A stretch of DNA of 64,000 bases from Eledone cirrhosa. Lineage: Eukaryota. The DNA is taken from the NCBI GenBank assembly GCA_964016885.1, contig OZ024743.1:6262001-6326000 (forward strand), read 5' to 3'. Made by a program: the position numbers and the translations under genes. The notes below the pieces were generated by a model that made no database searches, was not told the DNA's origin, and saw nothing but the letters and a program-made list of their open reading frames with translations. Of the stretch, positions 1 to 15,009 are shown one piece after another (position 1 is the stretch's first letter; each line of letters starts with the position of its first letter).

Positions 1-474
1 TATATATATACATATATATATATACATATATATATACACATATATATATATATACATATATATATATACACATATATATATATACACATATATATATACA
101 CATATATATATATACACATATATATATACATATATATATATATATATATATATATATATATACACATATACATACACATATACATATATATATACACACA
201 TACATATATATATACACACACATACATATATATATATATACACACACATACATATATATATATATATATATATATATATACACACATATATATATATATA
301 TACACACACATATATATATATATATATATATATATATATATATATATATATATATATATATATATATATATATATATATATATATATATATACACACACA
401 TATATATATACACATACATATATATATTAGTGAAAAAGAACAAAGGAACTATTATGACATTATAACAAGTTTAT

Positions 475-521
475 TGCCGACAGCCGTTTCGTCCGACCAC
501 ATGGTGGGACTTTTCAAGGCA
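475..521 (-). ncRNA. Type I hammerhead ribozyme motif, U3-A8 core variant
   Basis: TGCC-TTGAAAA-GTCCCACCATGTGGTCGGAC-GAAA-CGGCTG-TC-GGCA: stem I TGCC/GGCA, stem II GTC/GAC plus CCAC/GTGG, near-palindromic stem III, GUC triplet. Confidence 0.75.
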
Positions 522-722
522 TATAACATGTGACTGTAAGATCATTATCTACATCAACGTATCACTCAAGGCTAGCAGTTTGAAATTGTGGTATACATCA
601 GCAGCGCGTATACGCATAGAGCTTAACTAGCTACCGTCACATATTTGGTAGGTCAGACGTGATCATCGCGATTCACATACGACCTACCATACATCTTACT
701 TATATATATATATATATATATA

Positions 723-1302
723 TTTAGTAAGTAAGTTGATTTTTAATTTTTTAAATTTTCTTATTTATGTCTTTCATATAATTGTTCTGCATCCCCCTGC
801 ATAGAACCACAAAGGTACTAAGACATAACATATATATTTGCTAGCATAGGTGAACATCTGTACACATATATGGGTAAATGTACTAATTCTCTCCAAATTA
901 TTTGTTGAGCAAAACTTGCCAAAATTTACTGCTGATTCATGGTAGTAGTAGGCTCTTGTCATAATACCACCCCGCTCCTAACTGATTAACCTCAGTGTCA
1001 CGTGATTGATTCTTTAGAATCTGCCACTGACCAGAGGCAGTGAATTTTTTCAGTGCTCCTGAATTTAGTCCTCGCTAGCTGTGTTCCATCCACTGAATTA
1101 TTATTATTTTTATATGGGTTCCTAGTGTCCGTGCATCGCCTGGGAACTTAGCTGAGAATAGACTCCCTGATGACGTATGGAATTCTCTATAGTTATATTA
1201 TGTAACTATATTTATCCCCATACAGAAACTAATTAGTTGGAGTGAAAATTTTAGTAAGTTGAATTTTAATTTTTAAAATTTTCTTATTTTACGTCTTTCA
1301 TA
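723..1302 (+). mobile_element. Hammerhead-bearing non-coding unit (~525-nt period) with ~55-nt terminal direct repeat; Penelope-like pLTR or retrozyme-like
   Basis: 723-780 is repeated at about 1249-1302; HHR at 1162-1243; (TA)n on both flanks. Confidence 0.65.
1162..1243 (+). ncRNA. Type I hammerhead ribozyme motif
   Basis: ACTCC-CTGATGA-C-GTATGG...TATAGTTAT/GTAACTATA...CCATAC-A-GAAA-CTAATTAG-TT-GGAGT; palindromic stem III, GUU triplet. Confidence 0.85.
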
Positions 1303-1424
1303 TATATATATATATATATATATATATATATATATATATATATATATATATATATATATATATATATATATATAGAGAGAGAGAGAGAGAGAGAGAGAGA
1401 GAGAGAGAGAGAGAGAGAGAGAGA

Positions 1425-1696
1425 GAGAGAGAAACGATTATTAGAAAAAGAAACGATGTTTTTTTCCTTAGAAAATGTTGAAAGCAAATTGTTTTTCTTT
1501 CAGTGAAATATCAAAACATTACCGGTTTCAGCATTTTGTGCATTGTCAAATTTGACAATGCACAACCGGTATTGTAGATAAATAAATAAATTAATGTTTT
1601 CTTATTTCACTGAAAGAACAATTTGCTTTCAACATTTTCTAAGGAAAAAAAAAAAAAACATCGTTTCTTTTTCTAATCGTTTTTCTCTATATATAT
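1425..1696. repeat. Foldback: ~100-bp inverted arms with central 30-bp perfect palindrome (1536-1565)
   Basis: ttgtgcattgtcaaa|tttgacaatgcacaa; arms 1425-1521 / 1592-1696. Confidence 0.9.
1511..1555 (-). ncRNA. Hammerhead-like motif (U3-A8 variant) at the centre of a foldback
   Basis: TCAAAT-TTGACAA-TGCACAAAATGCT-GAAA-CCGG-TA-ATGTTTTGA; weak stems I and II. Confidence 0.5.
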
Positions 1697-2020
1697 CAAC
1701 TCGTGTGTTCCTTCTCCACATTTCGTTATTTATATATATATGGTCAATCGACAAGATCCCAGACCTCATCCGCTTGCCGAGTGAGGTGGACTTCATCAAA
1801 TCGGACCAAGGAAACAATATTTCCATTGCTGATACCATTTACCGGTCGCAACCCCAGGCAGAAGTAACAACATGAAATAAAGTGTCAACTCGCAACCTCA
1901 CGATTGCCAATCCCACTCACTAACCACTAAGCCACGTATATATATATATATATATATATATATATATATATATATATATATATATATATATATATATATA
2001 TATATACACACACACACACA

Positions 2021-2575
2021 CTAGTTGGCCCTGTGCCATCACAAATGACGAATAATTGGAATATCTATACATAATATTAAAAAAAACGTTTGTTTGTTGG
2101 TTCCTTCGCGCTCACACACAAGTGACACAAACACAACTGTGACAAATCTTAGAATGCTGGGCTTCTATAGTTTCTCACCACCCCCTCCTTCCTAAGTCAT
2201 CACATAGATGTGTGTGTATGTAATAATTATTTTTTCTAAGTATGTCTGTTTATATGTATGTGTAGATTCGTGTGTGTTTGTAATTCTATTGTCTACGTAT
2301 CTTTCTAAATAAACACACAAAAACATATACACTCACACAAATGCTATATATAAATATAATTTACACAAACACACATAAACACTTACATAATCATAATGGC
2401 CAATGTGTGTCGTCAATTCGCTATACATATACATATACATATACACGTGTAGCAAATGTTAGACACTGCTTAAATACACCTTCCTTTCTCAGTAGACGTA
2501 ATCACCTCTCCCTTCCTCGGACATCTCTAGTGTGTGATGGACAGATAGATACACATTGGCTTTCATATTAGTAGA
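2021..2575 (-). mobile_element. Non-autonomous Helitron-like element
   Basis: Minus strand starts a|TCTACTAATATG and ends with a degenerate hairpin plus CTAG|t. Confidence 0.5.
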
Positions 2576-2625
2576 TTTTATATATATATATATATAGTTA
2601 TGTAATAAACAACATAAGGCAATTA

Positions 2626-12284: not shown

Positions 12285-12307
12285 ATAAATTATATATATA
12301 TACATAT

Positions 12308-12497
12308 AATTGTTTCTACGTTAGGCACAAGGCCAGCAATTACCCAGTGTATTACTGGTACTTTATTTTATCGACCCCGTAAGGATGAAAGGCAAAGTCA
12401 ACCTCGGCGGGATTTGAACTCAGAATGGCAAAGGCCGTAACTCTATGCGTCAAAGCATGGCGTCCGACCCTCTACCGATACTGCCAATCCACCGCCT
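12308..12497 (-). mobile_element. tRNA-derived SINE, family A, with TSD
   Basis: A/B boxes TGGCAGTATCGG / GAGTTCAAATC; core GCCTTTCATCCTTACGGGGTCGATAAA; flanked by tatatatatacatataat duplication. Confidence 0.85.
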
Positions 12498-12514
12498 ATA
12501 TATATACATATAAT

Positions 12515-12886
12515 GGAGGGTTAGAGCACTGGCCTTTCATCGAAAGTTTGTGAGTTCAATTCTCAGACCGGGTGATGTGTTGTTTCCTTGAGCAAGACAC
12601 TTTATTTCACATTGCTTCAGTTTACTCAGCTGTAGAAATGAGATGATAGGGACTGGGGTCCCTATCATTCCACTGCAAAGTGGTCGTGGGGGTGCCATGG
12701 CAAAAAAGCACCCAGCACTCACTGTAAAGTGGACGTGTAGGCGCCACGGGAAAAAAGCACCCAGCACTCACAGTAAATGAGGTTGGTGTTAGGAAGAGCA
12801 TCCAGCTGTAGAAACCAAGCCAGAATCAGTTCCTGTCCCACCCTTGCAAGCAGGGAAAAGCAGACGTAAAATGATGATGATGATGA
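12515..12886 (+). mobile_element. tRNA-derived SINE, family B, with RTE-like 3' tail and (ATG)n
   Basis: Homologous to 37052-37385; B box GAGTTCAATTC. Confidence 0.85.
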
Positions 12887-12967
12887 GTCAGACAATTAGA
12901 TTTCGTCTATATATATATATATATATACAATATTAACAAATTGAAACTATATTTATAAAACCATATT

Positions 12968-13032
12968 TATTTTATTATACATATTTCAAGGGCACCACGT
13001 TAAATTATGGTGTGCTTTCATCAGACAAAATA
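12968..13032 (-). ncRNA. Type I hammerhead ribozyme motif (left arm of foldback)
   Basis: TATTTTGT-CTGATGA-AAGCACACCATAATTTAACGTGGTGCCCTT-GAAA-TATGTA-TA-ATAAAATA. Confidence 0.78.
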
Positions 13033-13135
13033 CAATATAGATCAGTTTTATAAATAAATATTGACATACCCTTAAAAAATCCAACCATTACTGTTGGAAG
13101 CTCCGGATATTTATTTATAAAACTGATCTATATTA

Positions 13136-13200
13136 TATTTTGTCTGATGAAAGCATACCATAATTTAACGTGGTGTCCTTGAAATATGTATAATGAAATA
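13136..13200 (+). ncRNA. Type I hammerhead ribozyme motif (right arm of foldback)
   Basis: TATTTTGT-CTGATGA-AAGCATACCATAATTTAACGTGGTGTCCTT-GAAA-TATGTA-TA-ATGAAATA; same family as 8261/10629 but a different stem II sequence that still pairs. Confidence 0.8.
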
Positions 13201-15009
13201 AATATGGTTTTATAAATATAGTTTCCATTTGTTAATATTGTATATTTACTCCAAATACTTGAGTGCTTTATATCAGTTATAAAAATATTTGCTTGTTGTA
13301 TCCCAACAATTTAAATAGAACTTTTGCATATATATATATATATATATATATATATATATATAGACATATGTGAGACACAAATTTAAATTTTGAAAACAAT
13401 GCGTTATGAAGATTGTTAGTCTCCTATTAAACAATGCTTCAAGCAAGCTACAAAACTCTTATATATTTATATATATATATATATATATATATATATATAT
13501 ATATATACTTATTTATAAATAAGTCAACTCAGATCAAATTAAACATCTCCCATCGATTATGCTCCGATTGTCTTTAAATGTTCATTATTTCCTAAGAATA
13601 TAGGAATTGGCCTTGAAAGCAATTATTTCCATTTCTGTTTCTCAAGTAACACCTTTTCCCAGAAGCATACAACTTTATCCAATATTTTCACTATTCTAAT
13701 AGGAACTTCTAACTTCTAGCATATTAACTTTCCTCCCAAATTTTTAATAGGTTTTTAATAGATTTTAGATTACACCAGCTTCTTGTATTTTTGTAAAATA
13801 TCCCATCTTAAGTTGTTAAATTTCTTTCAATAGATTTTCCAAAATACTTCCTTTTTTTATCAACATTTCTTCAATTATTATTTCTTTCAACAATTCTCTC
13901 TTTATATATATATATATATATATACACACACACACATATACATACATACACATATATATGATGATGATGGTTGCGACTTGATTTTGAGTAATGCCATCAC
14001 TTGATACTTAAGCATGAGCATCACAGACGTGGCTTTTTAGTCCAGCTAGGGACCTGCCTATAGCCAGCAATGCCATACATCACAGACGTGGCTTTTTAGT
14101 CCTGCTAGGGACCTGCCTATGGCCAGAAATGCCATACATCGCAAAAAATGTCACATATCAAGCGATGCTTGCACTCAAAGCTATTTTAAATGAGGAAAGG
14201 CTTTGCATGGGGCCAATCCAACTCTCTAAACGTCAAATGCATTTGCCCCAAAAGGGACTGGTCTACCTCATTGGATGCAAATGAAGTCGCAGGTTTTATA
14301 TCAGAGTGACTTTTTCATAGAGAGATGTCTTAATGAAGATTACGAGTCTCTCGTTCCACAAAAAAATACTTTATTGGATGGCTGTTGACTCTCCTAAGTT
14401 CCTCTGCCCTTTGACGGGTTTTGCTTTTCATACACATACACATCATTTAATGTCCGCTTTCCCTGCTAGCAAGGGCTGGACGAGTCTACATAGACCAAGT
14501 CAGTACTGAATTGGGACCACAGATGTCCCAGACAGGCCGTGGAGATCTGTATCTCATTTACGTACAGTCATTATCGAGTGCAGAGGAGTTGTCATGTCTT
14601 TTGACACAAACTGAAGGGTCTTCCTAACCTCTTGTTTGGCAAGATTTCTACAGTTTGATGCCCTTCCTATCACCAACCATTTTACAGCATGTACTGGGTC
14701 TGTTTATCACCAACACTAGAGAGGTTGTTGTGTCGATGACACAACTAAAGGGTCCTCTCAACCCTTTTAGGCATGGTTTCTACGGTGTGGTGCCCTTCCT
14801 GTCCCCAACCACCCTTACAGAGTGTACTGGGTGCATTTTCGTGACACCATCACTAGAGAGGTTGTTGGTCATAGACCCAACTGTAGAGCCCTGTCAGCTC
14901 TGGGGAGGAAGGCAAAAGGGGAGGGAGATGGGTACGAAGTTATAGGTGTTTGTGGGGAAGAGAAACTGTTAAATAAGGTACTCAATGTATTAGAAGAGAA
15001 GTTACATAT

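Follow-up and report, generated by a model that had tools for sequence, protein, structure and literature searches.

Hammerhead ribozyme motifs in a 64-kb stretch of the Eledone cirrhosa genome as probable 3′ ends of Penelope-like elements nested in (TA)n tracts

The 64,000-nucleotide stretch of Eledone cirrhosa DNA analysed here (assembly GCA_964016885.1, contig OZ024743.1, positions 6,262,001 to 6,326,000, forward strand; hereafter the window, in whose coordinates features are given) contains ten hammerhead ribozyme motifs within its first 13,400 nucleotides. An earlier note, made from the letters alone, had located these motifs and sorted them into six families, correctly in both respects, and had read them as a landing zone for several mobile RNAs. 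Our analysis points to 3′ ends of Penelope-like elements (PLEs), together with related units lacking an open reading frame (ORF), which very probably accumulated and nested in (TA)n tracts.

Hammerhead motifs and insertions at the locus

A core and a GAAA were present at all ten places. With a descriptor demanding the core, a stem I of at least 4 Watson-Crick pairs, stem II, GAAA, stem III and UH, eight of the ten motifs were complete type I hammerheads in the looser form (cores at 517, 2679, 3636, 8318 and 13024 on the minus strand and at 1167, 10637 and 13144 on the plus strand) and six in the stricter form; the descriptors were tuned on these very motifs, so that the window is favoured in any background comparison. 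The claim of ten hammerheads therefore stands for eight. The motif at 11749 (core 11756, plus strand) belongs to a copy of family D in which a single substitution within stem I creates a mismatch, and that at 1511 is a family C fold-back which, judged against intact C copies elsewhere, is broken: in its minus arm stem I is without its 5′ strand, lost where the fold-back joins, and its 3′ strand bears a deletion; in its plus arm GAAA is missing. Family F accounts for two inverted pairs and D for a further pair, so that the ten motifs represent seven or eight insertions. Mismatches under the core (A.C, C.A and U.U) were considered as signs of decay, a view that was rejected because they are fixed within families; the U.U type is already in print in the supplement of PMC8557442.

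Dinucleotide shuffles of positions 1–13,400 (n = 100) gave no match to the strict descriptor. The looser descriptor had no match in 13,400–64,000, which confirms the earlier statement that the other 50 kb hold no complete motif. The note had also proposed a scan with Rfam models, which returned 71 matches in the window (E ≤ 1), none of them a hammerhead and none reaching its gathering score; almost all were microRNA models driven by microsatellite. Hammerhead variants of PLEs were recovered in PMC4209133 by relaxed descriptors of its own.

The first insertion (family A, 428–700, minus strand) is a Hydra-clade 3′ end, as argued below, in which a tail-less arm of the pseudo-long terminal repeat (pLTR; 428–607, minus) is joined to a bare direct-copy tail (607–700, plus); its hammerhead (474–523, minus) has a U3-A8 core at 517, G10.1-C11.1 and a predicted cut after 479. 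Family B (723–1300, plus) consists of about 1.08 units of an ORF-less tandem repeat of 531–534 bp, whose 5′ end lies approximately 10–15 nt past the previous predicted cut and whose hammerhead (1162–1243, plus) has a C.A mismatch at the base of stem II, a palindromic stem III and a predicted cut after 1238. The family C fold-back (1433–1735, both strands) is a remnant with a probably Neptune-like parent, made up of a minus arm (1433–1550) and a plus arm with tail (1551–1735), the hammerheads of both being of the U3-A8 type and broken.

Family D begins with an inverted pLTR arm (2590–2757, minus) bearing a hammerhead (core 2679, predicted cut after 2633), followed by the body (2757–3307, plus) with the last 26 codons of a Hydra endonuclease (2759–2836, including the CxH motif) and a microsatellite-rich 3′ untranslated region (UTR). 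Nested in a (TA)n tract of this UTR is family E (3308–4158, minus), about 1.35 units of a 628-bp ORF-less tandem repeat with a hammerhead at 3564–3642 (minus; core 3636, predicted cut after 3570). The D 3′ UTR continues at 4159–5262 (plus), is interrupted by two insertions with CTAG-and-hairpin ends and no hammerhead (5263–7590, split into approximately 5263–6380 and 6391–7590), which by their features may be Helitron-like, and resumes as a short collinear piece (7590–7705, plus) ending in (TA)n. It was also noticed that the two insertions are a related pair, one holding 37-bp and 80-bp tandem repeats. A captured fragment of another repeat at about 4765–4820 resembles one half of another family's hammerhead, the one with GAAA and stem III, and is fixed in many D UTR copies, which suggests a nested insertion that D may later have spread.

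The insertion of F1, a young Hydra family (8127–10740, minus), combines a 5′-truncated direct copy on the minus strand, in which the endonuclease C-terminus (9927–10130) is followed by UTR, hammerhead (8261–8326) and tail, with an inverted arm on the plus strand (10139–10740, hammerhead 10629–10694, predicted cut after 10686). Farther on lie the distal D 3′ UTR and pLTR (10939–11842, plus), with the hammerhead at 11749–11809 that carries the stem I substitution, and a head-to-head pair of family F2 (12930–13330, plus), composed of a tail-less minus arm (hammerhead 12968–13032) and a plus arm with tail (hammerhead 13136–13200). Contrary to the earlier view that each unit is non-coding, the segments at 2759–2836 (plus) and 9927–10130 (minus) both encode the C-terminus of a Hydra endonuclease.

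Coding parents and ORF-less families

Using 2759–2836 as query, we retrieved D copies carrying reverse transcriptase (RT) and endonuclease frames, among them a full-length copy (L265) in which ribozymes at 1461 and 6118 flank a frameshifted ORF. The segment at 9927–10130 matched Hydra-type endonucleases (E 1e-10), and 39 of its best 40 matches were 100% identical; three full-length F1 copies (L291, L292 and L296) had a ribozyme at both ends and an unbroken frame of 736–737 amino acids. For family A, walking upstream led to L318, a full-length copy whose ribozymes lie at 3082 and 8463 and whose open frame spans 877 amino acids. An antisense ORF in the A UTR was considered and rejected, as six-frame translation gave none and the real ORF lies 2.5 kb upstream.

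In all three families a single ORF encodes an RT followed by a C-terminal endonuclease, with no N-terminal CxC domain. The proteins contain RW[KR] (RWK in D, RWR in A and F1), DKT in place of DKG, GLYRDD, a CxCX5C linker, and CxxC and CxH around E and N, and are without CCHH; L318 has one substitution in CxxC, a motif which L317 retains. By such motifs the Hydra clade is defined (PMC8557442, section 11), and it is on them that our assignment relies, the published Hydra proteins having been compared by eye as text. A hammerhead in the pLTR and insertion at (TA)n, both Hydra characters, were found in A, D and F1. The 4.0–5.4 kb between ribozymes exceeds the Hydra length of less than 3 kb, which PMC8557442 states only "generally" and which we therefore regard as descriptive, not defining. 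Judged from these proteins and ends, families A, D and F1 represent the 3′ parts of Hydra-clade PLEs. Of the 120 matches listed for an element protein, three were named; the closest named ones came from Argonauta hians (39–41% identity), which makes an octopod host likely.

In two of 16 loci, a CCHH-type endonuclease precedes the family C sequence by 490–1020 nt; this endonuclease has a CX4CxxC linker and CCHH-type residues, and the query protein matched PF01541 (E = 1.3e-7). On these two loci, C appears to be Neptune-like. The linkage to RT and endonuclease ORFs that the earlier note had proposed to look for exists for A, D and F1, and linkage to an endonuclease for C in this fraction of loci.

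The PLE-rich zone reaches beyond the window start: a frame of a CCHH-type PLE (L226, 6386–7841) and a Hydra frame (L227, 1930–4132) were observed no more than 20 kb farther upstream. Another Hydra family, seen in L057 (minus strand, past the endonuclease stop) and L026, has a hammerhead-like motif with stems I–III in which the core seems to read CAGAAGA instead of CUGAAGA (U4 to A), an unusual variant if fixed.

Families B and E form head-to-tail arrays of units (531–534 bp in B, 565–628 bp in E) that have one hammerhead each and no room for an ORF; endonuclease matches near B in L115 and L121 lay outside the B chains. Their 3′ ends are fixed, at 66 nt (B) and 271 nt (E) past the predicted cut. 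Such properties make B and E retrozyme-like, ORF-less tandem units. F2 is similar to the F1 pLTR, and its copies share a common fixed 3′ end at (TA)n, many having an inverted 5′-truncated arm that lacks the last 75–80 nt; when an F2 parent was sought starting from L023, a different F-group family was reached. A further retrozyme-like tandem family, with 310-bp units and a compact hammerhead, was noticed in two of the 59 background stretches described below (L168, 3650–4580; L172, 9335–9955).

Genome-wide abundance, nesting and insertion junctions

The background consisted of 59 evenly spaced 10-kb stretches (590 kb) of the 3.0-Gb assembly. The strict descriptor gave 37 matches in 22 of them and 0 in shuffles. 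The looser one gave 62 matches in 33, with a maximum of 5 per stretch and a density of 105 per Mb (bootstrap 75–137), as against a single match in 1.77 Mb of Markov sequence. In the whole genome, an exact count of one F-group pattern yielded 69,310 occurrences, a floor for pattern matches in which stem II pairing lies outside the pattern, and 0 for the reversed-pattern control. The same pattern occurred 21 times in the sample, which would predict approximately 107,000, so that the sample is about 1.5-fold high; corrected accordingly, the numbers suggest a motif total of about 1.2 × 10^5 (strict) to 2 × 10^5 (loose). The 62-nt ribozyme of F1 has 2,780 unchanged genomic copies, by which F1 is a young, intact family. 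First-look candidates for the other families numbered 1,604 (F2), 1,446 (A), 1,414 (D), 1,846 (B), 180 (C) and 2,588 (E); these are not copy numbers, 40 having been scored per family. Matches to the looser descriptor correlated with the (TA)n fraction of the stretch (rho 0.48, p 1e-4, n = 59). PLE-like coding matches covered about 23.6 kb of the 590 kb, in 17 of the 59 stretches (~4% of the sample).

The four D segments (2757–3307, 4159–5262, 7590–7705 and 10939–11842) are collinear with uninterrupted D copies. In the latter, 30–38% of the UTR is simple repeat, and each of five copies out of five has 8–17 (TA)5+ tracts; within the corresponding TA tracts of the window lie E, F1 and four unrelated pieces. 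The cluster is a nested pile-up, an upper-tail sample of a genome-wide expansion, and ordinary for this genome.

At least four TA units followed the 3′ end in 17/20 F2 tails, 10/12 A tails, 12/19 short ends of A, 19/43 copies of D, 12/33 of B and 15/32 of E, and the remaining 3′ ends mostly continue into the element's own tail or the next unit. The earlier suggestion of multi-copy mobile families of pLTR or retrozyme type with a preference for (TA)n is thus supported. In 26 F2 pairs, the two arms differed on average at 2.5 of 125 nt compared with 7.7 between insertions, and 51 of 65 differences were private; an origin of the two arms of one insertion from two RNAs is not supported by these pairs. 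Rows of D and B, in which short arms were misaligned, were left out of this comparison. It was also considered whether insertion itself might give rise to new (TA)n tracts. Among 380 (TA)n tracts compared, none had an empty target site; 30 had both flanks elsewhere, and all 30 of these retained a TA run, many being overlapping copies of one place.

The 5′ ends of B were compared with the position of the ribozyme cut, keeping chains that span the whole ribozyme (32/43, of which one duplicate was then dropped, and 16/22 in a fresh set); the 30-nt window was picked after the first set and fixed before the fresh one. In the first set, 7 of the 11 copies extending to the previous predicted cut began no more than 30 nt past it, compared with 17/223 per 30-nt step elsewhere; in the fresh set the figures were 3/9 and 7/143 (p 0.014), and in both together 10/20 and 6.6%. 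Some of the B RNA may accordingly start at the predicted cut, a hint of cleavage in vivo. Pausing of RT at the ribozyme fold is a rival explanation for the excess. In full-length copies, the tail equals the start of the next unit's leader, which implies templates longer than one unit, and the upstream pLTRs contain the ribozyme, from which many templates would be circular or uncut.

Elsewhere in the window, an RTE-type frame of a long interspersed nuclear element (LINE) at 21428–24344 stops at a 480-bp (TA)n tract, where the intact element (L233) has just TATA (100% identity over 86 nt); either microhomology at 5′ truncation or growth of the tract would account for this. Further LINE RT frames lie on the minus strand at 40433–42352 and 48907–49809.

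Interpretation and relation to known elements

We consider it highly probable (roughly 0.88) that the motifs are 3′-terminal hammerheads of PLEs (A, D and F1 of the Hydra clade, C Neptune-like, F2 related to F1, and the ORF-less B and E) and that copies of these elements pile up, one inside another, in TA tracts. Seen directly are the identity of the families, the fixed position of their 3′ ends at TA, the inverted 5′ arms with the tail on one side, the existence of full-length parents, the nesting and the genome-wide abundance. By analogy with the PLE literature, a GIY-YIG-type endonuclease would nick (TA)n, and RT would prime at the nick, copying from a fixed internal TA site shortly past the ribozyme and mostly stopping early, so that ribozyme-bearing ends become over-represented. 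The inverted arm may often be made from the same template as the direct copy, and the short tail-end copies would build up and nest in TA tracts, including those of the D 3′ UTR. B and E presumably rely on a protein supplied by a PLE, and circular or uncut multimeric RNA could be the source of those copies that exceed one unit. The ribozymes may cut the precursor weakly, mostly as dimers via the palindromic stem III, with E possibly acting as a monomer. More tentatively, and in our judgement somewhat doubtfully, the (TA)n tracts in the Hydra elements' own UTRs may seed further targets in a self-feeding loop leading to some 10^5 or more hammerheads and a still active family, with the B 5′ ends as a record of cleavage in vivo.

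Several observations weigh against this reading. Three pieces of Hydra ORFs had no significant Pfam match, and the endonuclease is therefore named through its motifs and the published clade definition. No linked ORF was found for F2 in 29 loci. Matches to the strict descriptor did not correlate significantly with TA run counts (rho 0.18, p 0.16). In E, 5′ ends do not cluster at the cut, one of 26 chains starting within 30 nt. Between the ribozyme arms of D we counted 11 differences in about 165 nt, more than the F2 arm mean, so that 10939–11842 may be a second D insertion; its truncation point would then be the internal tract at which L060 is also cut short. On the supporting side, in family B (24 distinct ribozymes), 11 of 24 pairs had changed on both sides and 94% of cells pair, a level reached by none of 500 shuffles, as would be expected from the stem covariation that the earlier note had asked for; however, the rows are related to one another and were chosen by a pattern fixing the core and stem III, hence the invariance of stem III.

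Among predicted monomer folds, the three-stem shape was obtained for E only, and D and F came out without stem I. The D and F predictions fit a weak, dimer-dependent ribozyme and do not demonstrate one. Lunse and colleagues have reportedly worked on hammerhead dimers. As a correction to the palindromic, dimer-type stem III of the earlier note, stem III of E can, in the predicted fold, form a full hairpin in the monomer; N7 and palindrome variants were seen in the F group.

If the locus were special, a selected trap or hotspot gathering ribozyme-bearing RNAs, its 8 matches in 13.4 kb against about 1.4 expected, the five matches from five families in its first 10 kb and the PLE ORFs just upstream (L226, L227) would be accounted for. 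The first 10 kb indeed ranks among the densest of the sampled stretches, the richest of which had five matches (1/59) and four families (1/59). However, one background stretch equals it in matches, the twelve neighbouring stretches are near background (15 matches in 120 kb), and its (TA)n fraction of 10.4% (sample mean 4.1%; 1.1% in the empty 50 kb) is reached or exceeded by 3 of 59. Moreover, the window was picked for its density, the descriptor was tuned on it, and nesting in the D UTR explains part of the excess. Since motifs of the same kind occur in 33 of the 59 sampled stretches, with up to five in each, the idea of a special landing zone is not supported, and we regard a trap as improbable.

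That all six families are non-autonomous retrozymes which lack coding parents and move in the form of small circular RNAs would agree with the tandem ORF-less structure of B and E, their single ribozyme per unit and fixed 3′ ends, and with the lack of an ORF for F2. It is refuted for A, D, F1 and C by their ties to RT or endonuclease frames, two endonuclease remnants lying in the window itself, and holds for B and E only; as an account of all six it is very unlikely. Chance matches in AT-rich low-complexity DNA would agree with the silence of Rfam and with the unremarkable folding z-scores of several motifs, and are refuted by the empty shuffles, the Markov and reversed-pattern controls and the compensatory changes, which leave them hardly any credence. 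The reading as PLE 3′ ends is thus the one we retain.

The kind of element is already described, and the families themselves are new. Files S1 and S2 of PMC8557442 contain an element of Octopus bimaculoides, Hydra-1_Obim, for which a preference for (TA)n is given and a hammerhead tabulated; 31 recently active Penelope-like families of O. vulgaris are reported in PMC13282606, the main text of which does not use "hammerhead", "ribozyme" or "Hydra"; and PMC8967140 describes Penelope expansion in coleoids. The elements can therefore not be called uncharacterised in this lineage, as the earlier note had supposed. In the literature searched, most subscription papers lying outside it, we found no hammerhead census for a cephalopod, nor these particular families or the genome-wide count. 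New here are the scale, a young intact family with 2,780 identical ribozymes, and B 5′ ends just past the predicted cut. The role of hammerheads in PLEs is considered unclear in PMC8557442; a young Hydra family with near-identical full-length copies, sister ORF-less units and thousands of junctions makes this role testable in the present genome by junction statistics and simple cleavage assays. If true, the self-feeding loop would have given rise to a hammerhead population among the densest so far recorded. The axolotl genome is far larger than that of E. cirrhosa. With 2,000–9,000 hammerheads, schistosome, frog, coelacanth, coral and mussel fall below the count obtained here, which has the same order of magnitude as the 120,000 of axolotl (PMC7229834 giving >6,000 for coral, ~5,000 for mussel and up to 120,000 for axolotl).

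Compared with the Hydra clade (Craig et al. 2021, PMC8557442), our elements are alike in the single ORF with RT and C-terminal endonuclease, in RWK, DKT, CxCX5C, CxxC and CxH without CCHH, in (TA)n insertion, in a sense-strand hammerhead close to the 3′ end whose stem III is palindromic, in the 1x1 mismatch at the base of stem II that is common in File S2, and in the inverted 5′-truncated arm with one-sided tail (section 6). They differ in length (F1 ~4.0, D ~4.7 and A ~5.4 kb versus <3 kb), owing to long 3′ UTRs, in the 30–38% simple repeat of the D UTR, in tails of about 75–120 nt versus 30–40, and in paired pLTR copies, whereas the Hydra-1_Obim entry gives "no pLTR"; the U3-A8 core of A is listed in File S2 for no Hydra element. 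For metazoan PLEs, minimal hammerheads have been described (Cervera and de la Pena 2014, PMC4209133) that likewise comprise many families per genome, mostly as solo truncated copies, with opposite-strand pairs 100–700 bp apart, the U3-A8 variant and a palindromic stem III; a dimer model and low in vitro activity are also given there. Their counts of ~2,000–9,000 per genome contrast with 69,310 for one pattern here, and G10.1-C11.1 is often replaced here and E has a full stem III hairpin. With Neptune-type PLEs, family C would share the endonuclease with CX4CxxC linker and CCHH-type residues that lies upstream in two loci; both C arms in the window are broken. B and E resemble non-LTR retrozymes (Cervera and de la Pena 2020, PMC7229834; Li et al., 10.64898/2026.07.22.740005) in ORF-less tandem units with one type I hammerhead and in the coexistence of PLEs, from whose pLTRs retrozymes are derived according to the latter source. 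Described retrozyme units measure 150–450 bp versus 530–630 bp for B and E; and, unlike described retrozymes, B carries PLE-style inverted arms and tails, and both B and E end at (TA)n.

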